DNA of 64,000 nucleotides, taken from an uncultured Gammaproteobacteria bacterium (GTDB taxonomy: Bacteria > Patescibacteriota > Microgenomatia > UBA8517). The notes under the pieces were generated by a model, which ran no database searches, was not told where the DNA came from, and saw nothing but the letters and a program-made list of their open reading frames with translations. The translations under genes were made by a program, and so were the position numbers. Below, piece after piece: positions 4,196 to 35,107 of this stretch (the first letter of the stretch is position 1; each line of letters starts with the position of its first letter). Where the stretch lies: the NCBI GenBank assembly GCA_964583685.1, contig CAZOVJ010000002.1:111333-175332 (forward strand), in the 5' to 3' direction.

Positions 4196-4630
4196 TTAGG
4201 TTTTTTTAGTTTTAATTTTTTTTGTCTTTTTCTTAACGCTGCGCACTTTTCCCTTGGCACTCCCGGGCTTTTCCACCCATTCAAATCTAACTATTTGAGC
4301 CAAATCCCCCCTTCTTCGGGGAAGATTGATAATTCTTGTAAAACCTGATTTCCTCTTTTTAGTAAGAGAGAGAAGCTCAGTAAAAAGCTTTCTGGTCGTT
4401 TCTTTGTCATTACCCAATTTCGCCAAAACCGCACGCCTAGCATTGAGAGTATTTTTTCTAACAAGAGTCATTATCTTGTCTATCTCTGACTGAACAAATT
4501 TTGCCTTTGCTTTTGTTGTCTTTATCTCGCCATAGAGAACCAAGGCCCTGGTTAAAGATCTAAATAGGGCGACCCTAGAACCTCTAGCTCGTGACAACTG
4601 ACGGCCAAAAATCTTCTTACGCATCCTCAA
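4196..4630 (-). CDS. rplQ: 50S ribosomal protein L17
   Basis: L17-like N-terminus (MRKKIFGRQLSRARGSRVALFRSLTRALVLYGEIKTT) in the position after rpoA. Confidence 0.9.
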   Translation of the reverse strand: MRMRKKIFGRQLSRARGSRVALFRSLTRALVLYGEIKTTKAKAKFVQSEIDKIMTLVRKNTLNARRAVLAKLGNDKETTRKLFTELLSLTKKRKSGFTRIINLPRRRGDLAQIVRFEWVEKPGSAKGKVRSVKKKTKKIKTKKT

Positions 4631-5573
4631 ATTTCACTCCTTTTTCCAAAAGAGCAATTTCGATAATTTTCAAAGATTTTTCTCCTAAATTCCTAACACC
4701 CATCAATTCTTCCTTTTTCGCTTTCACTAGTTTTCTCACCGTTTCATAACCTGCCTTTGTTAAAGCATTGGCTACTCTGGTTGGAAGTCCAACCTCTTCA
4801 ACAGAAAGCTGACCAACAGACCCTAAAGTATCTTTCGGCTTGAGGCTTTTTTTCTTCTTTAATTTCTTGGGAGATATTATCTGATTCAAAAAGGAAACTA
4901 AAATCTTTGCCGACTCTAATAAAGACTCTTTTGGTGTAATAGTTCCGTCCGTCCAGATCTGTAAAGTTAGCTTATCGTAATTAGTTAATCTACCAACACG
5001 TGTCTCCTCAACTTTATAATTAACTCTCAAAACCGGAGAGAATGTTGAGTCTAATGGAATAACTCCAACCTTCCGGCTCACTCTTTCTTCTGCTGGAGAG
5101 TAGCCAACTCCAGATTCCACCTGCATTTGTACTTCTAGTTTAGCACCCTTTCCCAGATTGGCTAAAACAAGCTCGGGATTGGCTATCTTTACATCAGCTG
5201 GTGTCTTAATATCGCCAGCCTTTACCTCCCCAGCACCTTGAACTGAAAGAGAAACATTAACCGGTTTTTTACCATGATAAGCTATTCTTACCTTCTTAAG
5301 GTTTAATAAAAATTCAACAACGTCCTCTTTCATTCCCTTAAGGGTTGAGAATTGGTGACGGACTCCTGCAATTTTTGCCCGGGTTATGGCTGCTCCGGGA
5401 AGACTGGATAATAAAACCCTCCTCAGGCCATTACCTAAAGTCAAACCATAACCTGCCACTAATGGAGAAATGATAAAACTTGCATAGTTTTGTTTTTTAC
5501 TTTCTTGTTTTATCTTAAAAAGCGGATTGTCCATCTCATTCACCTCCAATCGTTTATCTTGAATAAAACTCAA
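4617..5573 (-). CDS. rpoA: DNA-directed RNA polymerase subunit alpha
   Basis: N-terminal-domain dimerisation motifs (ISPLVAGYGLTLGNGLRRVLLSSLPGAAI), and the C-terminal domain ends ...GEKSLKIIEIALLEKGVKF. Gene order is S13-S11-S4-rpoA-L17. Confidence 0.9.
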   Translation of the reverse strand: MSFIQDKRLEVNEMDNPLFKIKQESKKQNYASFIISPLVAGYGLTLGNGLRRVLLSSLPGAAITRAKIAGVRHQFSTLKGMKEDVVEFLLNLKKVRIAYHGKKPVNVSLSVQGAGEVKAGDIKTPADVKIANPELVLANLGKGAKLEVQMQVESGVGYSPAEERVSRKVGVIPLDSTFSPVLRVNYKVEETRVGRLTNYDKLTLQIWTDGTITPKESLLESAKILVSFLNQIISPKKLKKKKSLKPKDTLGSVGQLSVEEVGLPTRVANALTKAGYETVRKLVKAKKEELMGVRNLGEKSLKIIEIALLEKGVKFEDA

Positions 5574-20413: not shown

Positions 20414-20443
20414 ATTATAATCAGAATTTAAGCAAACTGTCAA
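20414..20443 (-). promoter_or_regulatory. Putative internal promoter for tuf (TTGACA-18-TATAAT); the -35 overlaps the fusA stop codon
   Basis: On the reverse strand, TTGACA is at 20443..20438 and TATAAT at 20419..20414. A hairpin CAGGGC-CCAA-GCCCTG (20386..20401) sits between the promoter and the tuf start. Confidence 0.4.
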
Positions 20444-22578
20444 GCATTAGCAGACTTAACCTTAGTCTTTTTAGCAATTAAGGTCTCGGTAATATTTTTG
20501 GGAACTTCTTCATAGCGAGAAGGCTCCATATAAAAGCTTGCCCTCCCCTTTGAAAGAGAACGAAGACCGGTTGCATAACCTCTAAACTCCGCTAAGGGCC
20601 CAAGGGCATTAATAATAACCACATTCTCCCTTGTTTCTGTTCCCTGGATACGGGCGCGGCGAGAGGAAAGATCACCGATAACATCCCCCATATATTCTTT
20701 TGGGGTGGAAACTTCAAGTTTCATAACCGGTTCCAGTAAAGTTAAATCAGCCTTTTTAACAGCTGTCTCTAGGGCCAGAGAGCCGGCAATTTTAAAAGCA
20801 ATTTCTGAAGAATCAACTTCATGGAAACTACCGTCATAGACAACAACCTTCATGTCCACCATCGGATATCCGGCCAGGACTCCTTTCTCCATTTTTCCTA
20901 TAACACCCTTTTTTATTGCCGGAATAAACTCTGAGGGAATGGCCGCTCCTTTTATTTCAGACTCAAACTTAAAACCTTCTCCTCGAGGCAAAGGCTCAGC
21001 TCTTAAAAAACAATGGCCATATTGGCCTCTACCACCAGTTTGCCTGATATACTTACCCTCAGCTGTTGTTATTCTCTTAATAGTTTCTTTATAGGCCACC
21101 TGGGGAGTGCCTGTTCGGGCTACCACGTCAAACTCTCTTTTCATCCTATCAACAAGAATCTCAAGCTGAAGCTCTCCCATGCCGGAAATAATCGTCTGGC
21201 CAGTTTCCATGTCGGCTTTAATCTTGAAAGTGGGATCTTCATCCGATAATTTCCTCAAGGCAGTTCCCATCTTCTCTTGATCTTGTCTGGTGGCTGGTTC
21301 AATGGCCAGAGAAATAACCGGCTCAGGGAACGAAATAGATTCAAAGAGAACCGGATGTCCAGGATCACAAAGTGTATCTCCTGTTGTCGTTTCCTTAACC
21401 CCTACCACCGCGACAATCTCTCCTGCATAGGCTTCGTTAATTAATTCCCTTTGATTGGCATGGGGAAGGACAAGTTTGCCTATCCTCTCTTGTTTTCTTT
21501 TAGTAGCATTCAAAATACTCTGACGAGCTAGAATCTTGCCCGAATAGATTCTTAGATAAACCAATCTGCCTACATGGGGGTCTGTAACGACCTTAAAGGC
21601 CAAGGCTGAAAATGGAGCATCAATTTTTGCCTCCCTTATCTCTTTTGCTCCTGTTTGGGGATTTTCTGCCTTAACAGGAGGTAGGTCCAGAGGAGAAGGT
21701 AAAAATTCTATTATGGCATCTAAAAGAAGTTGAACCGTTGCTGTTCTATTATCCGCACCCAAAATTGGAAAAAATTTACCGGAAATAACACCCTTTCTAA
21801 TCGCCTTCTTTAACTCCGTTACATTTATCTCTTTGCCCTCAAGATATTTTGTTAAGGCAAGGTCATCATATTCGGCCACCCTCTCAAATAATTCTTGACG
21901 GTATCTTTTGGCCTTTTTAATTAATGCCCGTGGCATTTCTCCCTCTTTAAGTTTGTTGTCCTCGAGTCCTTTATAGGTATAGGCTTTCATGCGAACAATA
22001 TCAATCACTCCATGGAGATTATGTTCTAATCCCAAAGGAATCTGGATTGGAGCCGCATTTGCTCCCAAGCGTTCTCTAATAGAAGTAATACTTCTCTCAA
22101 AATCAGCCCCAATCAAATTTAGCTTATTTAAAATACAAATACGAGGAACCGCATAGCGATTTGCCTGTCTCCAAACAGTCTCTGATTGACTTTCAACTCC
22201 GGTACGGCCATCAAAAACCATGACCGCACCATCTAAAACCCGCAAGGATCTTTCAACCTCTGCTGTAAAATCAATATGTCCTGGAGTATCAATAATATTA
22301 ATCCTATAATGTCCTTTGTCAACACTAGTACTTTTCTTCAGATCCCAAAAAGTAGTAATTGCCGCAGACACGATAGTGATACCGCGTTCCCTTTCTTGCT
22401 CCATCCAGTCAGTAACAGTAGTTCCTTCATCAACAGAACCACGCCGATAAGTTTTTCCGGTCTCAAAAAGCATACGCTCCGTGGTTGTAGTTTTCCCTGC
22501 ATCAATGTGGGCAATAATACCGATATTTCGGATTTTATCCAATGGAACATCACGGTCCTTGGTAACCGTCACCACCAT
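20440..22578 (-). CDS. fusA: Elongation factor G
   Basis: AHIDAGKTTTTE G1 motif; 700+ aa with all EF-G domains. The likely start is the Met at 22578 (MVVTVTKDRDVPLDKIRNIGIIAH), because the ORF-track upstream extension overlaps the rpsG stop. Confidence 0.9.
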   Translation of the reverse strand: MVVTVTKDRDVPLDKIRNIGIIAHIDAGKTTTTERMLFETGKTYRRGSVDEGTTVTDWMEQERERGITIVSAAITTFWDLKKSTSVDKGHYRINIIDTPGHIDFTAEVERSLRVLDGAVMVFDGRTGVESQSETVWRQANRYAVPRICILNKLNLIGADFERSITSIRERLGANAAPIQIPLGLEHNLHGVIDIVRMKAYTYKGLEDNKLKEGEMPRALIKKAKRYRQELFERVAEYDDLALTKYLEGKEINVTELKKAIRKGVISGKFFPILGADNRTATVQLLLDAIIEFLPSPLDLPPVKAENPQTGAKEIREAKIDAPFSALAFKVVTDPHVGRLVYLRIYSGKILARQSILNATKRKQERIGKLVLPHANQRELINEAYAGEIVAVVGVKETTTGDTLCDPGHPVLFESISFPEPVISLAIEPATRQDQEKMGTALRKLSDEDPTFKIKADMETGQTIISGMGELQLEILVDRMKREFDVVARTGTPQVAYKETIKRITTAEGKYIRQTGGRGQYGHCFLRAEPLPRGEGFKFESEIKGAAIPSEFIPAIKKGVIGKMEKGVLAGYPMVDMKVVVYDGSFHEVDSSEIAFKIAGSLALETAVKKADLTLLEPVMKLEVSTPKEYMGDVIGDLSSRRARIQGTETRENVVIINALGPLAEFRGYATGLRSLSKGRASFYMEPSRYEEVPKNITETLIAKKTKVKSANA

Positions 22579-22631
22579 TGCTGATTTTTTCTTTGTTTGT
22601 TGTCCTGGCATACGAGCTATACTATGAATAT

Positions 22632-23111
22632 CTACCAACGGAAGTGGGCGAAGGCGCGATTGGCCTCGGCCATACGCTCAACATCTTGTCGCTTTTTAAC
22701 CGCTCCACCTTCACCTTTGGCAGCATCAACAATTTCAGCTGCCAATTTCTCAGCATAGGTATGATATTCAGAATTGGAACGGCTTCGGGCAGCCTGGATT
22801 AGCCAACGAATTGCCAGAGATTCCCTCCTTGGGCCCCTTACACTCATAGGAATCTGATAAGCTGCACCCCCCACCCTTCTTGGTCTTACTTCCATGCTCG
22901 GTTTGATATTGGAAAGTGCTTGGGAAAAAATTTTAACAGGGTCATCTTTTGTTCTTTTCATTATTAGCTCAAACGCGCTATAGACCTGCTTTTGAGACAC
23001 ACTTTTCTTGCCATCACGCATGCTTCTGTTAATCAACTTGGCAACAAGTATATTTTTGTAAATCGAATCTGGCTGAAGCTTTCTTGGTTTTACTTGTCCT
23101 TTTCTAGTCAT
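22632..23111 (-). CDS. rpsG: 30S ribosomal protein S7
   Basis: S7 family (…IYKNILVAKLINRSMRDGKKS…). Confidence 0.9.
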   Translation of the reverse strand: MTRKGQVKPRKLQPDSIYKNILVAKLINRSMRDGKKSVSQKQVYSAFELIMKRTKDDPVKIFSQALSNIKPSMEVRPRRVGGAAYQIPMSVRGPRRESLAIRWLIQAARSRSNSEYHTYAEKLAAEIVDAAKGEGGAVKKRQDVERMAEANRAFAHFRW

Positions 23112-23114
23112 CTT

Positions 23115-23573
23115 TTATTCCTCTTTACTAGCACCAGTGGTTGAGACTTCTGCAACTCCAACCTCACCTGTCTTTTTGGTTCCATAACGACTTCGAGATG
23201 TCTTTCTGCCAACCACCCCTGTTGTCCCATATTTACCACGAACCACTTGGTATCTTACCCCAGGTAAATCTTTTACCCTACCTGCTCGAACCAAGATTAT
23301 TGAGTGCTCAGCTAACTCATGTCCCTCGCCAGGAATATAGGCAGTAATCTCCTGCTTATTGGAAAGCCTAACTCGAGCTACTTTCCTCAAGGCAGAATTT
23401 GGTTTTTTGGGCGTCATTGTCCGAACCGCCAAAACAACCCCTCTTTTAAAAGGAGCGGGTAAGTCTCTAAATTTTCTGTCTTTTGCGTTAAACCAACGTT
23501 TTAAAGCCGCACTACGGGTCTTTTTGATTATTCTCTTTCTACCTTTTCTGACAAGTTGTGATGTTGTTGGCAT
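23115..23573 (-). CDS. rpsL: 30S ribosomal protein S12, with a short internal insertion and a C-terminal extension
   Basis: [11 protein letters not shown]...[17 protein letters not shown]...[27 protein letters not shown]. It is 152 aa against about 124 aa for typical S12. Confidence 0.9.
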
Positions 23574-23575
23574 AA

Positions 23576-26500
23576 TTAAGTCACTGGAATTAACCTACCG
23601 ATGATAACATTTTCTTTTAATCCTCGCAGGTAATCTCTTTTCCCAAATAAGGCTGCTTTGGTCAAAACGTTTGTTGTCTGCTCAAAGGAAGCAGCTGATA
23701 ACCAACTTTCGGTAAATAGTGAGCGCCGGGTAATACCCAATATTTCCTGTCTGGCACTGGCCGGCTCTCCTCCCGCTGCCAAAACCGCCTCATTTTCTTC
23801 TTCAAATTTTGCTTTTTCCACCAATTCACCGGGGAGTAAAGAAGTATCCCCGGCGGTCATAATCTTTACCTCATCACCCATTTTTCTGATAATTACCTCA
23901 AAATGCCGGTCATTGATAGGAATTCCCTGAGATTCATAGACTTCTTGCAAATGATTAACTAAATATTCCTGCGCTTTCCTCAACCCCCGAACCGCCAAGA
24001 TCTCCTTTATGTCCAGAGAGCCAGAAGCAAGCTGAGTCCCAACATCGACAAGTTGCCCTTTGGTCACCCTCAGTTCATTCGCCTTGGGAATTAAATATTC
24101 TCTTTCTTCTTTGGGTTTTGTCTGGACGCTGACCACTTTAACTTTCCAACCGGCTTCCGTCTCAGAAATCTCCACCTTCCCGGCTATCTCCGATAATGGT
24201 GAAAGGATCTTGGGAGTTCTGGTCTCAAACAACTCTTCAACTCGAGGAAGACCCTGGGTAACATCAACACCAACAACTCCTCCAGAATGTTTTGTTTTTA
24301 GAGTAAGTTGGGTTCCCGGTTCACCAATCGACTGAGCGGCAACGACCCCGACTGGAACACCAATTTTAACTATCTCCTTATTCGAAAGGTCCCAGCCATA
24401 GCACTGAGCACAAACCCCATATCGAGTTGAACAAGTCAGGGGTGAACGAACCATAACCGCATCTATCTTTGCTTTATTAATCTCTTCAGTCTTTTGTTCA
24501 TCAATAATTTTTCCTTTCTTGAGTATAACTTTTCCTTTAGAAGTTTTGATGTCCTCGCTAGCGATTCTTCCCACTATCCTATTGTCAAAAAATTCTGGAC
24601 GAACAGATCTTCTAATAACCAAACCTTCAGTCGTACCACAATCCTCTTCCCTGACAAGAACATCATGGGCAACATCAACCAATCTTCGAGTAAGATAACC
24701 GGCATCAGCCGTCTTAATGGCTGTATCGGTCAAGCCCTTCCTTGAGCCCCGGCTGGAAGCAACATACTCAAAAACCGACAGTCCTTCTCTAAAATTACCC
24801 TTAATAGGAAGTTCAACGATTTTACCCAGGGGGTCAACAACCAATCCCCTCATTCCAGCCAACTGCTTAATCTGGTTACGTGAGGTTCGGCCAACCTTGG
24901 CATCAATTACCATTCTGATTGAGCCTTCTGTGTCTATTACTTCCCAGGTTTTGTCGGCAATTTCTTCCGTAGTCTCTATCCATATCTCCTGGATTAACCG
25001 TTTCTTCTCCTCGTTGGTAATTAAACCTTGACTAAAATTATTCTCAATGCCGGCAATCTTCTTATCAGCCTGTCTTATCAATTTACCTTTCTCGGGTAAA
25101 AGAGTGGCGTCTGAAATGCCAAAAGAAAGACCGGATATTGTTCCTCCCTTGAGTCCCAAATCCTTAATATTATCAATCAGCTTTATCGTCTCTGTGTGTT
25201 TGAGCTGAAAGAAAGCTTTATTCATCAAATCCTTGATGACCGATGAATCGGCAGCCTGGTTTATGAAATTGAAACCAGGAGGTAAAACCTTATTTAAAAG
25301 TAGCCGGCCAGTGGTTGTTTCAACTGTCTTTAAAGCCAGCCTTATGTTTATCTTTTGCCTTAGTTCAATAACCCCCATTTGATAAGCGGAGATTGCCTCA
25401 TCAACATCACTAAAAACCGTCTCGCAGGGCTTAATTCGTGAATCCTCGCTGGTTAAGTAGTAAACTCCCAAAGCTATTTCTTTCTTTGCAGGAGCAGCAA
25501 TCGGTGATCCATCAGCTGGTCGGAGCAAGTTCTTATCAGATAACATCAAATCTATTGCTTCTTTGACTGCTTTTTTTGAAAGGGGAATATGAACTGCCAT
25601 CTGGTCTCCATCAAAATCAGCATTAAAACCAGCACAGATTGCCGGATGAATTCTAATCGCCTTCCCTTCAATTAATACAGGATAGAAAGCCTGAATCCCC
25701 AGCTTATGAAGAGTTGGGGCCCGATTTAAAAGAACAGGATGATTTTTGGTAATCTCTTCTAGAATATCAAAAACCTCTGCTGGTTTTTGATCAAGCATAT
25801 TTTTAGCACTCCGCACATTGGGAGCGATTTCCCGAATAATCATCTCATGAAGAACAAAAGGCTTAAACATCTCCAAAGCCATCTCTTTTGGAAGTCCGCA
25901 CTGATTAAGCTTAAGCTCGGGCCCAACAACAATAACTGAACGTCCAGAATAGTCAACCCTTTTACCAAGAAGATTTTGCCTAAATCTTCCCTTTTTCCCC
26001 TTAAGCATATCTGAGAGAGACCTTAAAACCTGTCTTCCTCGTCCTCTTCGGGTAGCTTTACGCTGGGAAGCGTCAATCATAGAATCAACCGACTCCTGAA
26101 GCATCCTCTTTTCGTTGCGTAAAATAATGTCGGGTGCACCGAGCACTATTAAATGTTTAAGTCTATTATTGCGATTAATAACTCTTCTATAAAGATCATT
26201 TAAATCACTAGCAGCAAAGCGTCCACCAGACAGTTGAACCATTGGCCGTAAATCCGGAGGCAGGACAGGCAGAACCCTGAGTACTGCCCAGCTTGGGTCA
26301 ATTTTGGCATCTCGCAAAGCATCTATTAGTTTCAATCTCTTGGCTAGCTTTATGTATCGTTCACCCCGACCTTTTAGCTCTTCCAGTTCTTTTTTTATCT
26401 CTAGAGACAGCTTCTTTAAGTTAAGACTTTCCAAAGCTGAAAGAACTGCTTCAGCACCTGTCTTGACTTCGAGAAAAGCGGTCGCATCATAAAAAGCAAG

Positions 26501-29500
26501 TTTGTCGTATTCATCTTCAGACAAGAATCCAAGTGCTTGTATTCCCCTAACCAAACTAACAAGCTTAGAGAAAAGTTCTCCCATGTTTTCAAGCATTGTC
26601 TGTTCCTCTTCGGATAAGGTTGCTTTCTTTTTGCGAACCTCAAGGCCAATTTCAGAAATCGCCAGAGCCAATTGTTCTTTATCTTTAATTTTTACTCTTA
26701 CACTTTCTTTTTTCTCCTTAACTTCTTTCTTAATCAAGTTCTTTTTCTCTTTAAAAATTTCCTTTATCTCTTTAGTCTTCTCTAGCCTTACTTTCTCTAA
26801 TTTTTTAATCGCTTCTTTCTTTTGTTTCTCGTTGACCGAAATTACCAAATATTTTGCATAGTAGATTACCTGATCAAGAGCACGCGGGGGAAGGTCTAAA
26901 AGAAGAGATATCCTTGAAGGAGCTCCCTTGAAAAACCAAACATGAACCACTGGAGCAGCAAGATTGATATGGCCCATCCGTTCACGCCTAACCCTCGATT
27001 CGGTCACCTCAACCCCGCACTTATCGCAAATAACCCCTTTATATCTTATTCTTTTATATTTCCCACAATAACATTCATAATCCTTAGTCGGTCCAAAAAT
27101 TCTTTCGTCAAAAAGACCATCCTTTTCTGGTTTCAAAGTTCTATAATTAATTGTTTCTGGCTTTGTTACTTCACCTTTTGACCAAGCGCGAATTTCATCC
27201 GGCGAAGCTAATTTCAGCCGTAAGCTTTTAAAATCTGTTAAATCTCTTAATCGAAGAAGTGCATCTTTATCTCCTTCCTTCCCAAGCTCAACCGCTAAAC
27301 AGAGAGAGTTCAACTCTCTTATGAGAACCCTAAAGCTCTCGGGAACCTTGGCATCAGGAATATCTTCACCTTTAACAATTGCCCTAAAAGCTTGAGCCCG
27401 TCCGATGATATCGTCGGATTTTATGGTTAACATTTCCTGTAAAATATTGGCTGCTCGATGAGCCTCTAGTGCCCAAACCTCCATCTCTCCCAGTCTCTGT
27501 CCTCCCATTTGTGCTTTTCCGCCCAGAGGTTGTTGAGTAACCAGGGAATAAGGGCCAGTTGAGCGAGCATGGGCTTTATCCTCAACCATGTGTTTCAATT
27601 TCAAAATATAACCAATTCCGACAACCGTATCTTCCTTAAATGCCTCTCCTGTTTTCCCATTAAAAAGCCTTGTTTTGCCGTTTACAGGCAGGCCTGCACT
27701 TTTTAATTCTTTGACAATTACATCTTCGCCGATTTCATCGAAAACCGGTACCGCCCCTTTTTCTCCTTTATGCTCAAGTGCCCAGCCCAAATGACACTCC
27801 AGTAACTGTCCCAAGTTCATTCGAGCTAAGACAGAAAGAGGAGAAATAATGATATCAACCGGAGTCCCATCATCCAGATAAGGCATATCTCCGATGGGTA
27901 TAATTTTGGCAATAACCCCTTTATTGCCATGGCGGCCTGAGAGCTTGTCGCCAACAGTAATCTTTCTCAGTTGGGCAATCTTGACAATCACGCTCTTTAT
28001 TACTCCAGGCCCTAATTCATCTCCTTTTTCTTTGTCTAAAATCATCACCTCAACAACTGTCCCTCCCTCTCCATGAGGAACTCTAAGTGAGGTATCTTTT
28101 ATCTCCCTTGCTTTCTCTCCAAAAATAGCCCTAAGAAGCCTCTCTTCCGAGGTTAACTCTGTTTCACCTTTGGGAGCTATCTTACCAATCAAGATATCTC
28201 TCGGTCCAACTTCAGCTCCGACAATAACAATTCCGTCTTCAGCCAAATTTGCCAGCTCTGTTTCAGCAATATTCGGTATATCACGGGTTAATTCTTCTGG
28301 CCCGAGTTTAGTTTCAACAATCTCTACCTTATACTCTTTAATCTGAATTGAAGTAAGAATGTCTTCCCTAACCAATCTTTCAGAAATTAGAATTGAATCT
28401 TCAAAACCATATCCCTCAAAAGAGCAATAAGCAATCACTAAATTTTGACCCAAAGCTAATTCTCCATCCTCGCAAGCAGGACCATCTGCCAAAAGATCTC
28501 CTTTTTTAACCCTCTGGCCTGTTAATACCCTGGGTTTTTGATTGTAACAAGTAGATTGACTACTCCTTTTAAACTTATCCAGATGATAAATAGCTTTCCT
28601 CCCCTTGTCGCTTATTTCAAGATTATCTAGCCTCTTTTCATCAGTCTTTTTATCAAGTTTTATTTCAATCCTCTGGGCATCCACATATCCAACCTTCCCC
28701 TGATAGCCGCTTCTGATCACCCGACCCATAGCACTAGCTATCATCTTTTCCATCCCTGTTCCGACAATCGGTGCGGATTGTTTAAGCAAGGGAACAGCCT
28801 GGCATTGCATATTTGCTCCCATCAAGGCCCTATTCCCTTCATCATGGGCTAAAAATGGTATCAGCGAGGCGGAGGTACCAAAGACCTGGCGAGGAGTGAT
28901 ATCAATCAAATCTACTAAATCTACCGCTCCTTCTGTAAAGATTCCCTGATGCCTAAAAGCTACTCTCTCATCAATAATAAAACCATATCTATCAATATTC
29001 ACTCCCAGGTGGGTTATGTGGTAGTCTTCCTCATCATCAGCCGCCAAATAAATAATTTCATCACTAATCTTGACCTTTGTCTTACCATTTCTTTTAATCT
29101 TCTTAACTACCCTATAAGGAGCTTCCAAAAATCCATACTCATTAATCCTTGCATAAAGAGCAAGATAGGTAACCAGGCCAATATTCGGCCCTTCTGGAGA
29201 ACGCACTGGGTCAATCCTCCCATACTGAGAGGAATTGACATCCCGGATAGAAAAAGAAGCCCTTTCTCGACTGATTCCTCCTGGTCCTAAAACAGAAATA
29301 CGTCTCAAATTATCTACTTCTGAGAGGGGATTCGTATTATCCAAAATTGTTGATAGTTGATTTGATCGGAAAAATTCATTAAAGGAAACAATCAAAGGCC
29401 GGGCATTGATCAGATTTGAGGGTAGTGGTCGGTCATCAGGTGAAATCAAACTCATCTTTTCTTTAACAGAACGTTCAAGTCTCAACAGCCCAACCCTGAA

Positions 29501-30508
29501 GGCATGGGTTGCAACCAATTCTCCGACCCGTCTAAGACGGCGGTTAGCCAGGTGATCTATGTCATCGACTTTCCCTTGACCATTTTGCAGAGAAATCAAG
29601 TAGGATAAGGTGGCGACAATATCTTGTTTTGTTAAAACTCCACTTGACTCATCATTAAGAAGACCCATCTTCAATCTTTTATTTATCTTGTATCGTCCCA
29701 CTCTTCCCAAGTCGTATCTTCTTGGATCAAAAAAAAGAGTATTAACTAGATTTTCTGCATTTTCTAAAACAGCCGGCTCTCCTGGTCTCATCTTTCTATA
29801 AAATTCAAGAAACGCCTCCTCGCGCGTCTTGGTTAAATCCTTTTCTATTGTGCTGGCTATATATCGGTGGCTATTATCTATATCAGCATCGGAGAAAAGT
29901 CTCAAAATCTGGATATCTGAGGCAACCCCCATTATCCTCAAAAATGTCACCGCATTCATTTTTCTTCTTTTGTCTATCCGAACAGCAATAATGTCCTTTC
30001 TATTCACCTCAAACTCAATCCAAGAACCATGTAGGGGTCTTATCTCCGCCTTATAAAGCATTCTGCCGGAAGAAGGATCTAAATCACCTGAAAAATAAAC
30101 TCCAGGGGACCTTACCAGCTGATTGATAACGGCTCTTTCAACTCCCTTGACAACAAATGTTCCTGAAGAGGTCATCTGGGGAATGTTCCCCAGAAAAACT
30201 TCCTGGCTAACCTTCTTGCCCGTCTTTTTATTGATTAAGGTTGCTTTTATCTTGAAGGAAGAAGAAAAGGTCAAACCTTTTTCTCTAGCTGTATCCGGAG
30301 TAATCTGGGGAGGCTCCAGCTTAGGCTCAATCAATTCCAGCTGCCAATTCTTCCCTGTAAAATCCTCAATTGGTAAAATCTTGACCAGCTCTTGCTTGAT
30401 TCCCTTTTCTAAAAACCACTGCCAAGACTCTCTTTGAACTAGAATAAGGTCTAATGGGGGCAGTTTTTTCTCTGTTTTTCCGAAATTGCGTCTTTTAGGT
30501 TGGGCCAT
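23576..30508 (-). CDS. rpoBC: DNA-directed RNA polymerase beta-beta' fusion (RpoB-RpoC in one 2310-aa ORF)
   Basis: The N-terminus is beta-like. The beta C-terminus [27 protein letters not shown]...LAVELGKEG runs in frame through a linker [20 protein letters not shown] into the beta' N-terminus [11 protein letters not shown]...[26 protein letters not shown]...[12 protein letters not shown], and ends with the beta' C-terminus. The junction is at about 27210..27275, with no stop codon. Confidence 0.9.
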
Positions 30509-30558
30509 GAGCGATTTCTAAGGATGCAAAATTCCCGCATTGTACGCGGGAGAAGCGT

Positions 30559-30586
30559 ACTGGGTACGCCTGCTATGGATTATACA
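30559..30586 (-). promoter_or_regulatory. Putative sigma70-like promoter for rpoBC (TTGACA-16-TATAAT)
   Basis: On the reverse strand, TTGACA is at 30586..30581 and TATAAT at 30564..30559, about 50 nt upstream of the rpoBC ATG at 30508. Confidence 0.5.
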
Positions 30587-30657
30587 CAAATAAAATCAGC
30601 TGTCAAGCCTCCATCCCTTACAAGTTCGTTGTGCACGTGCATCGCAAACTTGTCACG

Positions 30658-32314: not shown

Positions 32315-32948
32315 GGGCTTCTTCTAAGGGCACTATTCTTGCCCTAATAACCAGCCTTTTGGGCTTCAGGGGATGGCCGGGCGGGACACAAGTTATTAAG
32401 GTTAAAAAAGAATCACTCTGATTCTGCTCTAAAACCTGAATGTTTGTGGTTAGGGCCTCAAAAATGTCCTCAACCCGATATTGATAAGAAATGCCGTCAT
32501 ATTCTACCTCAATCTCATCACCCCTTTTCAGACTGGGCAGAGTAGAAAAAATGGCCAAATAATCCTTGGGGTTGTAAAACTGAGGCAAGATTGAATGGCC
32601 GAAAATAACGGCATTCCCCCGCTTGCCGGGCAGGGCCGTACCCGGGTATTGAATCAGGCTCTGAGACAAATCCTCTCCACCGATGGCCACAGTTGCATTT
32701 TCTATTTTTAGCTTGGGAATGGAAAGAGTATAAAAAGAAATCTTCAGAGAAACAAAATCATTGCTTTCCTTTCCACCAACAAACCAATTGCTGGCCTTTG
32801 TATAGTCTGGCTGGGAGACAGAAGAACTGGCTGTCTTTGTTTCATAGGATAAAATTGGGTAAAGAACGGAAAAGAGAATAACAACACCTGAAACTGCACA
32901 AACGGCAGCTATTATGGTAATGAAAGTTTTGTTTTGCCAGAGATTCAT
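32295..32948 (-). CDS. Sortase family transpeptidase
   Basis: N-terminal membrane anchor; conserved His (AVIFGHS), catalytic TLITC motif and downstream Arg (RLVIRARI). Confidence 0.7.
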   Translation of the reverse strand: MNLWQNKTFITIIAAVCAVSGVVILFSVLYPILSYETKTASSSVSQPDYTKASNWFVGGKESNDFVSLKISFYTLSIPKLKIENATVAIGGEDLSQSLIQYPGTALPGKRGNAVIFGHSILPQFYNPKDYLAIFSTLPSLKRGDEIEVEYDGISYQYRVEDIFEALTTNIQVLEQNQSDSFLTLITCVPPGHPLKPKRLVIRARIVPLEEAHVHTRH

Positions 32949-35107
32949 TCTTCTGCCACTACTTCAATAGATATATTCCTGTTGATTCGGGGTAGAGTTC
33001 TCAGTTTTCCAGGAAGAGATGGCTTCAAACGGATCTCCACCCGAGTGAATCCAGAAATTGTTGAAAGATGATCTTCAGCCAGGGGCAGGTATTTTCCCTT
33101 AATTGCCCTAGTAATCTCCTCCGGCCTTATCTCAGGAAGCAAATTGGCTTTAAAAACTACATCAAGCTGCCAAATTCCGTTCTCACTCTTTTCATTCAGA
33201 TAAAATTCTGCTTCAATCTGCTCTTCCTTTAAAACAAAACCCTCGGCAACCTGGTCCTCCAAAATCCCTTTTGCCAATTTCTGTAAATCTGACCTTAAAA
33301 CAATTAGACCGGCCATGTCTAAAGACATACTCAGCTTAAGGGTGGGTGCCTCATCGCCAAGCTTGTGATTGAAATCCCTGGCTGAGACTGTTTTTTCTAT
33401 TGCCTCTTCGATAAAAATCTTCTCTTCACTTACCTGCTCTCGAATTTGCTTCTTGCCAAGATCAAGTAATTCTTCGCTTAAATCTCTTTCCAAAATATCT
33501 TTATCCTCAGAGGAGACAACGCTAATTTCCCGACTCGACCCACCCAAAAAATCCTCCTCTGCTATCCCGTCGACTTCGCTCTTGGGATAATTAGCCACCT
33601 GAAAGGTTTGTTCTTTCGCCAAGTTGTACTCAGCCCCAATTTCCTCCGCAGTGACGCTGACGCTGGCTGTACCCGGAGAAGAAGGAGAAACTGCGGCCGA
33701 CACTGAAGCTGAACTGTCAAGTGTGAAACTTAGATTGTTTGGTCCTAAAATTTTTGTCTCTGCCGCCAGCCTGATGTTCGAAGATGTTCCATTCTGAATC
33801 AAAACCTTACCCTTGGCCTTTTCCCCCACTCTTTTACTTCCTGTGGTCGAGCGTGTTTTATCGGCTGAAACTGATGTTTCCAAAACATTACCAGGCAAAA
33901 GCCTCTCTTCAAAATTGGCACCATTTACTCTCGGATCAACAAATAAAATTTCTTTTTGCTCAATATTCTTGGGGGCAACATAAATTGTCACCTCTGCTTT
34001 AGGTAAAAACCACCAAGCAGAAAGAGCAAGAATGATAATAGCGACAAAACCTATTCCTCCAAAAACGAAAAATCTTTTACCCGTCATCCCTCTCTGAATA
34101 GAAAAGGGAAAACTCTTCAGCTTTTTTAAAACAACAGAAGACAATGCTTTCTTAAAAAAAGAAGGTTTCTTGACAACAGGGGGAGTAGCCATTGTTTGAT
34201 CCACCTCCCTCCTTTGCTGTTCTTGAGTTATATCCTTACCAACGGTAAATCCCATATCTTCTGGCCCAAGGGCCTGGCTCTCAATCTTTTCCTTCTCTTG
34301 TTCTTTTTTTTCTCCTTCTTCTTCCGGCTCTTGCCTCTTTTCAACCTCAAGAGAGACAACTCCTTCTATCTCTGATGCCCCGGCCAAACAAACACTAAAA
34401 AGCTTACTGTCTGAGTCAATAATTTCCACCTTTGGGGTGTGAAGAAATTGTACCTTTTCTTGCAAATTTCCTGTCCAGTCTGCCGCTATAAGAATCTGCT
34501 TCTCTTCTTCCAGGTCGCCTTCTCTACCATTGTATATCAAAAATCGTGAGGGAAATGGCTCACCGGTTTTAAGCCTAACCAACCCCTCAATAAGATCGTC
34601 TACCACTGAAACGCTTCTTGTCACAGAGGTTGTGCCCACTAAATTTCCCAGTCTATAAACAGCTATATCCAAGAGTTCTTGGCCTAGACCAATAACCACC
34701 GCACTTAAAGGAGAACCTTCTTCTGATTTAATAAAATGAGCAATTGCTTCTGGAAGAACAACAAATCCCACTGGTTCAAGAGAAAGTTTAGAACAAATCC
34801 CTCTTATCTTGTCCAAATATTCTTTTTTTATCTGGCCTTTCAAGACCCATGATGATGAAACTCCAAAAACTGTTTTTGAGGGTTCGGGTGCATCTTCGGG
34901 TAAATCCTGTATTGCTAGCGATAAAGAAGTATCAGCCACATTTGGCAAATCCTCATCTTTCTCCCAACGAGAGGGGGGGCTGGTTGAGTAAACTTTTGCC
35001 TTCTTTGTTTCCTGGTCTATTACCCAAACAGCCGCCTGAATCCAATTAGGCTCGATTAGTAGAGACCAATAATACTCTTGCATAGATTCTCCGAATACCC
35101 GAGGCAA
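32945..35107 (-). CDS. Hypothetical bitopic membrane protein (about 330-aa cytoplasmic N-domain, one TM, about 350-aa extracytoplasmic domain)
   Basis: 720-aa ORF. The N-terminal region (YYWSLLIEPNWIQAAVWVID...) is weakly reminiscent of actin-like FtsA/PilM N-termini. An acidic linker is followed by a TM helix (FFVFGGIGFVAIIILALSAWWFL) and a Ser/Thr-rich C-terminal domain. Confidence 0.5.
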   Translation of the reverse strand: MPRVFGESMQEYYWSLLIEPNWIQAAVWVIDQETKKAKVYSTSPPSRWEKDEDLPNVADTSLSLAIQDLPEDAPEPSKTVFGVSSSWVLKGQIKKEYLDKIRGICSKLSLEPVGFVVLPEAIAHFIKSEEGSPLSAVVIGLGQELLDIAVYRLGNLVGTTSVTRSVSVVDDLIEGLVRLKTGEPFPSRFLIYNGREGDLEEEKQILIAADWTGNLQEKVQFLHTPKVEIIDSDSKLFSVCLAGASEIEGVVSLEVEKRQEPEEEGEKKEQEKEKIESQALGPEDMGFTVGKDITQEQQRREVDQTMATPPVVKKPSFFKKALSSVVLKKLKSFPFSIQRGMTGKRFFVFGGIGFVAIIILALSAWWFLPKAEVTIYVAPKNIEQKEILFVDPRVNGANFEERLLPGNVLETSVSADKTRSTTGSKRVGEKAKGKVLIQNGTSSNIRLAAETKILGPNNLSFTLDSSASVSAAVSPSSPGTASVSVTAEEIGAEYNLAKEQTFQVANYPKSEVDGIAEEDFLGGSSREISVVSSEDKDILERDLSEELLDLGKKQIREQVSEEKIFIEEAIEKTVSARDFNHKLGDEAPTLKLSMSLDMAGLIVLRSDLQKLAKGILEDQVAEGFVLKEEQIEAEFYLNEKSENGIWQLDVVFKANLLPEIRPEEITRAIKGKYLPLAEDHLSTISGFTRVEIRLKPSLPGKLRTLPRINRNISIEVVAEE

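Follow-up and report, generated by a model that had tools for sequence, protein, structure and literature searches.

RNA polymerase beta and beta' encoded as one reading frame throughout a Woesebacteria-labelled clade of Microgenomates

Natural fusions of the bacterial RNA polymerase (RNAP) subunits beta (RpoB) and beta' (RpoC) are placed in the Helicobacteraceae and Wolbachia in PMC7483510, which cites Zakharova et al. 1999 and Lane & Darst 2010. The arrangement has also been engineered. A synthetic Escherichia coli rpoBC fusion is functional (10.1101/2021.11.05.467461), and a fused rpoBC on plasmid pMP61 is the routine source of Mycobacterium tuberculosis RNAP (10.64898/2026.04.06.716786). 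The gene described here is an rpoBC on the minus strand of a 64,000-nucleotide stretch of contig CAZOVJ010000002.1 (the window). It is read, with a probability of about 0.9, as a genuine, vertically inherited fusion that contributes one beta-beta' chain to a normal RNAP. An initial annotation of this DNA had proposed a natural in-frame rpoB-rpoC fusion of the Helicobacter and Wolbachia kind and not an artefact, and conservation among relatives supports that proposal.

The rpoBC open reading frame (ORF) occupies 23576-30508 on the minus strand. It begins with ATG, ends with a TAA stop at 23576-23578, and encodes 2310 residues with a predicted mass of 258 kDa. The frame is genuine and is made up of a complete beta followed by a complete beta'. 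It had been described from the outset as a single uninterrupted ORF; the ORF listing, Pfam, and alignments to Protein Data Bank (PDB) chains agree, and all of the peptides quoted in the initial annotation are found in the translation. An open frame of 6.9 kb in DNA of 41-42 % GC is not a product of chance.

The beta part is composed of residues 1-1080 (27269-30508, minus strand), as delimited by Pfam Rpb2_1 to Rpb2_7, PDB beta chains, and the beta subunits of two unfused relatives, L085 and L086. This part is compact and has lost the acidic C-terminal tail that relatives carry. Rpb2 domains 1, 2, 3, 45, 6, and 7 follow each other in order over residues 67-1075, with E-values of 1e-116 to 1e-9, above the curated Pfam cut-offs. 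The beta' part, residues 1081-2310 (23579-27268, minus strand), is delimited by Pfam, PDB chains, and alignments and ends in ...IIGRLIPVT. Rpb1 domains 1, 2, 3, and 5 span residues 1092-2261, far above the curated cut-offs, and Rpb1_4 (PF05000) gave no Pfam match in the 2310-residue protein at E<=0.01. PDB beta chains match residues ~20-1100. No beta' domain is missing, because solved beta' chains cover residues ~1087-2309 end to end. The beta' N-terminal zinc-binding motif CxC...CxxC (C1146, C1148, C1161, C1164; 27017-27073, minus strand) is invariant across the clade alignment. The catalytic NADFDGD of beta' was identified by motif match at residues 1629-1635 (25604-25624, minus strand) and is likewise intact and invariant.

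The fused form is shared by a large group of relatives. Among 5.8 billion proteins searched, 62 further full-length homologs of 2304-2366 residues and 61-74 % identity were found, drawn from NCBI, JGI, ENA, and Logan, together with one further member of 2023 residues. Below this set, scores fall sharply to ordinary beta subunits of ~1,280 residues. Three extra cluster members were added, and the full-length fused set is composed of 68 sequences including the window. The frame reads through the junction in all 68, which come from many samples. Three assemblies contain the identical 2310-residue protein, namely one from NCBI (on a 349,840-bp contig), one from JGI (metagenome contig 3300008517), and one that Logan re-assembled from run SRR3095939. 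Named fused homologs carry the labels 'Candidatus Woesebacteria' or 'Patescibacteria group', and one clade member is listed in UniProt as 'Multifunctional fusion protein'. In the clade alignment, core regions have identities of 0.8-0.9 to relatives, and the regions on either side of the variable junction have 0.84-0.9. The gene order sortase-ruvX-(66 aa)-yceG-rpoBC-rpsL-rpsG is retained in a relative at 62 % identity.

The junction is located at residues 1071-1093 (27230-27298, minus strand). The core of beta runs to about G1079, and K1081 holds the position of Met1 in the beta' of relatives. The DNA of two unfused relatives was read across the corresponding interval. In L085 (GCA_022561615.1), an rpoB of 1123 codons, whose product is 73 % identical to the window beta, is followed by a stop, a 148-nt spacer, and an rpoC that opens with ATG-GAA-CCC (MEPL...). 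In L086, with a beta 69 % identical to that of the window, the sequence between rpoB and rpoC is 'AAA TAA TT ATG GAA CCA'. Both match the window as closely as its fused relatives do (75 %). Their beta subunits carry an acidic tail of ~50 residues after an ELNSLGL motif, and their beta' starts with MEPLAGLRSLSDF, to which a segment of 13 window residues aligns position by position. Many separate beta' proteins of Microgenomates likewise start with Met at the junction motif, e.g., MEPLAGLRSLSDFKSL...LASP, which aligns with K1081-L1096. These came from a search with the beta' N-terminal region that returned mostly truncated beta' fragments, omitted full-length fused proteins, and served for N-termini only, not for counts of fused and unfused forms. 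Residue 3 of the Bacillus subtilis, Clostridioides difficile, and Streptomyces beta' (residues 3-4 in mycobacterial chains) aligns to residue 1089.

The initial annotation had described a linker of roughly 20 residues at this point. That segment is instead the native beta' N-terminus, because the beta' start of the unfused relatives aligns there. In the fused relatives, the variable junction is composed of the acidic beta tail and the beta' N-terminus, and the tail has a median of 27 residues and a maximum of 61. The window has just 9 residues (AVELGKEGD) after the ELNSLGL motif. Junction length was measured by motif across the 68 fused sequences, in place of an uninformative estimate from MAFFT columns. 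The true connector is ~1-2 residues (G1079/D1080), the shortest in this set. The window beta' C-terminus is also the shortest in the fused clade by C-terminus alignment. The suggestion that the fusion coincides with reductive features finds weak support in these two shortest segments; a causal tie to genome reduction does not follow from them.

The proposed origin is as follows. In the ancestor of the Woesebacteria-labelled Microgenomates clade, rpoB and rpoC would have been adjacent, as they are in unfused relatives, where 2-148 nt separate them. Loss of the rpoB stop and the spacer by deletion would then have joined them in frame, a mechanism we infer, and the old beta' Met1 would have become an internal residue. 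In the window genome, a further deletion would have taken nearly all of the acidic beta tail, which is the linker in relatives. The gene would be transcribed from its own strong promoter along with rpsL-rpsG-fusA-tuf. One 258-kDa beta-beta' chain would be translated and would join the separately encoded alpha and a sigma factor to form a normal bacterial RNAP. The fusion would probably hold beta and beta' at an obligatory 1:1 ratio and make their assembly an intramolecular step. In the clamp, the C-terminus of beta and the N-terminus of beta' sit together, and the fusion would be tolerated because the two adjoin there.

Two neighbour-joining trees, both without support values, describe the evolutionary setting. 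Tree 1 was built from 1937 trimmed beta and beta' columns. In it, the window clade is monophyletic, all fused, located beside other members of the candidate phyla radiation (CPR), and far from Helicobacter. Tree 2 was built from the beta' N-terminal region of 177 sequences, with the fused protein P0066 left out. The main fused clade holds together in this tree, and the unfused 'MEPL' group is its neighbour. Read most parsimoniously, these trees suggest a single basal fusion in the window clade.

The window fusion shares with the RpoBC of Helicobacter and other Campylobacterota a single ORF, a beta C-terminus joined to a beta' N-terminus, and a lineage-wide distribution. A sequence check of the Helicobacter muridarum locus confirmed that it is continuous across the junction. 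The Helicobacter connecting segment is ~25 residues long, compared with ~1-2 residues here, and the fusion is about 2,890 residues in length versus 2,310 in the window. An independent origin is indicated by tree 1, in which the window clade groups with CPR, at a distance from Helicobacter, and not with the fused genes of Campylobacterota or Rickettsiales. The Wolbachia RpoBC has the same head-to-tail architecture and also belongs to a reduced-genome bacterium, but it is from another phylum and represents an independent event. The engineered rpoBC of E. coli and M. tuberculosis resemble the window protein in the covalent link between beta and beta', and activity has been shown for the engineered ones. 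They contain designed linkers, whereas the join here is natural and nearly linker-free.

Other fusions are found within CPR. One is made up of L023 (DATJQA010000074.1, a Candidatus Paceibacterota metagenome-assembled genome, MAG) and P0124, and another is the Microgenomates group P0064-P0066. They have the same architecture, belong to the same superphylum, and have short junctions, but unfused lineages stand between them and the window clade in both trees, and they are probably independent for this reason. In tree 2, P0064 and P0065 are placed away from the main clade, among unfused sequences. P0066 groups with these two in tree 1, and its junction keeps the old beta' start Met (...KKKMKNIVDF). 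The tree positions thus suggest that there were probably at least two further independent fusions within CPR, three in all.

Fused genes are also scattered more widely. A background sample of 80 diverse genomes was taken from a contig scan with the junction peptide, a scan dominated by universal motifs (EMEVWALE) and biased to same-frame rpoB/rpoC pairs. In this sample, rpoB and rpoC were separate in 78 (Parcubacteria, Saccharibacteria, and Nomurabacteria among them) and fused in two, H. muridarum and the Paceibacterota MAG. An exhaustive HMMER census of 1.84 billion representative proteins added ~25 more fused representatives of 2,030-2,860 residues, scattered and often on long branches, and in these lineages, too, the fusions probably had independent origins. 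Several fused proteins in the census are alphaproteobacteria-like (2,560-2,812 residues). The fusion is a further case of a known kind with an ordinary mechanism, and proteins like it already carry fusion labels in databases. IMG uses the product name 'subunit beta-beta'', and KEGG has an entry, K13797, for the RpoBC beta-beta' fusion. Literature searches aimed at an rpoBC fusion in CPR or Woesebacteria turned up no paper on one.

Several points weigh against a genuine fusion that acts as one chain. The JGI and Logan assemblies possibly derive from the same reads. The single 258-kDa chain is deduced from the sequence, and the single basal fusion is drawn from trees that lack support values. 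The AlphaFold2 junction has a predicted local distance difference test (pLDDT) score of 55-64, too low to judge whether a join of ~1-2 residues can span the gap without strain. Any selective benefit is also deduced, and the fusion may be advantageous or neutral. Helicobacter pylori with artificially separated subunits is viable.

A bolder view of that benefit regards the fusion as a recurrent adaptation of ultra-small CPR cells and not as a neutral accident. It would have arisen probably at least three times and, in the window, would have been tightened to a near linker-free state. The gain would be 1:1 stoichiometry and chaperone-independent assembly in cells with few enzyme copies, and maybe compensation for an omega subunit that is absent or degenerate. 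Omega is contacted in other bacteria by the C-terminal region of beta', and the compensation idea would fit because this C-terminus is truncated in the window (...IPVT versus ...IPAGTG...). As a whole, this view is doubtful.

It is less likely still that the ORF is fused and the subunits are nevertheless made separately, through translation that starts internally near the junction or through proteolysis. A Shine-Dalgarno-like AAGGAG at 27276-27271 lies within the junction and is followed, after a 6-nt spacer, by ATG (27262-27276, minus strand). In most relatives, moreover, the junction is long, acidic, poorly conserved, probably disordered, and maybe accessible to proteases. This ATG, however, does not share the rpoBC frame and starts an ORF of 5 codons, ATG CAC TTC TTC GAT TAA. 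Residues 1030-1135 include no in-frame ATG or GTG, and neither of the two in-frame TTG codons (residues 1066 and 1125) has a Shine-Dalgarno sequence upstream. Internal initiation is unlikely for these reasons. Across the main clade, variable residues stand in place of the old beta' Met1. Cleavage would find almost nothing to cut in the window protein, where the flexible tail is deleted, and Helicobacter produces the full-length fused chain. The AAGGAG-N6-ATG was also considered as a fossil rpoC start and ribosome-binding site and was rejected, as the ATG is out of frame and the unfused relatives place the old start at K1081. The motif probably arose by chance from the K-E-G-D-K-D codons.

A sequencing or assembly error, i.e., a missed base or a collapsed region that erased the rpoB stop and the rpoC start, is effectively refuted already. 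A small error might mimic a fusion where the genes are as close as in L086, with only 'TAA TT' between them, and indel errors are evident in some related assemblies, such as L086 itself, where beta' is split into 495 and 749 residues. Yet the three pipelines that assembled this locus give one and the same product. The other full-length fused homologs, 67 in number, come from four data sources and form a coherent clade with the window in the tree. The change also goes beyond a one-base slip: ~40 residues of acidic tail are absent in frame, and residue 1081 is Lys and not Met. The initial annotation had pointed to sister genomes as the place where an error would be exposed. These 67 homologs share the fusion, a stop at the homologous position occurs in none of the fused clade, and the unfused relatives fall into a group of their own next to it. 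Annotation pipelines should neither split rpoBC nor flag it as a frameshift, because the fusion is biological.

The idea that the fused ORF is a decaying or redundant paralog, with a working rpoB and rpoC elsewhere in a genome of which 64 kb is visible, has next to no probability in view of its intact catalytic and structural motifs, core identity of 0.8-0.9 to relatives, canonical place ahead of rpsL-rpsG-fusA-tuf behind a consensus promoter, and an arrangement that is the same throughout the clade.

With a genuine fusion as the preferred reading, the short textbook list of Helicobacter and Wolbachia gains a large clade of uncultivated bacteria and probably two additional lineages of CPR. The closely related fused and unfused genomes constitute a natural comparison for the effect of subunit tethering on fitness and assembly. 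The near-zero linker is a natural lower bound on the connection length that RNAP tolerates and is useful for single-chain RNAP expression constructs.

The beta' part contains a K/E-rich insertion of 94 residues, 1234-1327 (26528-26809, minus strand), at the beta'In1 site. It was defined by alignment against Firmicutes beta', motif spacing, AlphaFold2, and Foldseek. The initial annotation had estimated about 170 residues, which is too long by comparison with Firmicutes beta', and had called the insertion lineage-specific, which does not agree with its presence in unfused Microgenomates beta' and at the same site as actinobacterial beta'In1. The window is colinear with residues 3-302 of the Streptomyces and Mycobacterium beta', and the insertion lies between the zinc-binding/clamp N-terminal segment and a downstream 10-residue motif.

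The distance from the HxWFFK motif to this downstream motif is 224 residues in the window and 222-226 in every fused homolog in which both motifs were located. Most bacteria have 129-147 residues here, Actinobacteria 212-214, and other CPR 168-203, and the distance in Chloroflexi is larger. Unfused beta' fragments with both motifs mostly have a spacing of 219-225, including those labelled Curtiss-, Collier-, Pace-, and Levybacteria, and a few have 204-216, e.g., those labelled Shapiro- and Amesbacteria. The insertion itself is present in unfused beta' labelled Curtiss-, Collier-, Pace-, Levy-, Davies-, and Shapirobacteria. Because unfused beta' show the same spacing, the insertion is a common feature of Microgenomates that has no relation to the fusion. 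Across the fused clade, the insertion aligns without gaps at 47 % identity.

The insertion is predicted to form a long coiled-coil hairpin. AlphaFold2 models antiparallel helices at residues 1227-1273 and 1277-1322 (47 and 46 residues) with a 3-residue IKD turn at pLDDT 84-91, and the model is poor elsewhere in the fragment, at the junction too. In a Foldseek search of the PDB, each of the top 50 matches was an actinobacterial beta' chain, with a global root-mean-square deviation of ~20 A owing to the badly modelled rest of the fragment. In mycobacteria, the beta'MtbSI/beta'In1 insertion is a coiled coil of ~100 residues and ~70 Å that extends from the clamp and gates the DNA cleft, and its deletion makes the open complex 30-fold less stable (Lin et al., bioRxiv 10.1101/099606). 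The window insertion resembles it in site, size (94 versus ~100 residues), and predicted two-helix coiled coil. However, sequence similarity within the insertion is too low for a claim of homology; the phmmer alignment to the actinobacterial insertion is made up mostly of K/E matches. Other CPR and Chloroflexi have inserts of other lengths at this site, and independent acquisition is possible because of that variation. The insertions of Microgenomates and Actinobacteria are either homologous or convergent. By analogy, a Microgenomates-wide coiled coil at the beta'In1 site would mean that the mycobacterial DNA 'gate' may be more widespread.

The region upstream of rpoBC contains a putative sigma-70 promoter with a perfect consensus match, TTGACA-16-TATAAT, at 30579-30606 (minus strand), ~70 nt 5' of the ATG. 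A promoter-like site is found at an equal distance in a relative, L083. Between the promoter and the ATG at 30508, the sequence of the 5' leader contains an 8-bp GC-rich hairpin (TCCCGCG-TAC-AATGCGGGA region; 30533-30551, minus strand) followed by ATTTTG. The hairpin has no Rfam match and could be an attenuator or a stabilising element. The gene directly upstream of rpoBC is yceG, not rplKAJL. Downstream, the ORF listing places rpsL at 23115-23573 (minus strand), with its ATG 2 nt past the rpoBC stop. The genes rpsG, fusA, and tuf come after rpsL, and rpoBC thus heads the str-operon genes. The alpha subunit is encoded by a separate, ordinary rpoA at 4617-5573.

Two neighbouring genes deserve mention. 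The fusA gene, which encodes EF-G (20440-22638, minus strand), is listed from a TTG as 732 residues with an overlap of ~9 residues with rpsG. This start is probably too far upstream because the public gene call is 723 residues. Upstream of the sortase gene, a protein of 720 residues (32945-35107, minus strand) matches no Pfam family in the window. Its homolog in L083 (1559-3694) has a weak Baseplate_J match only, and the gene is syntenic across the clade.

IPAGTG is near-universal at the C-terminus of beta'. Throughout the fused clade, it is replaced by IPV.., and the window protein stops after IPVT (23576-23640, minus strand).

Four divergent metagenomic proteins from the census, P0140, P0150, P0155, and P0176 (1,948-2,309 residues), contain an alpha N-terminal domain (RNA_pol_L and RNA_pol_A_bac), a complete beta, and a complete beta'. 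P0140 possesses a second Rpb11-like dimerisation domain, RNA_pol_L_2, at residues 234-301. The four cluster together on long branches in tree 1, and locus L084 (45-6770) belongs to this set. From their domain content, each looks like an alpha-beta-beta' single-chain RNAP core. The more interesting leads are these triple fusions, the repeated origin of fusions in CPR, and the fused and unfused sister groups.

Many Microgenomates assemblies list beta' as truncated pieces of 400-750 residues, even on long contigs. Examples are P0312, with 629 residues on a 237-kb contig, and P0380, with 544 residues on a 419-kb contig. At 6001-9715 of L086, the two beta' pieces are overlapping ORFs. Indel errors in long-read assemblies are the most likely cause, and a genuinely split beta', as in cyanobacteria, is a possible alternative.

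Two labels in tree 1 also stand out. L019 (CAZIVC010000002.1), deposited as 'uncultured Gammaproteobacteria', clusters tightly with a Parcubacteria MAG, and its label is probably wrong for that reason. L016, named 'Candidatus Minthosoma caballi', groups with Bacteroidota.

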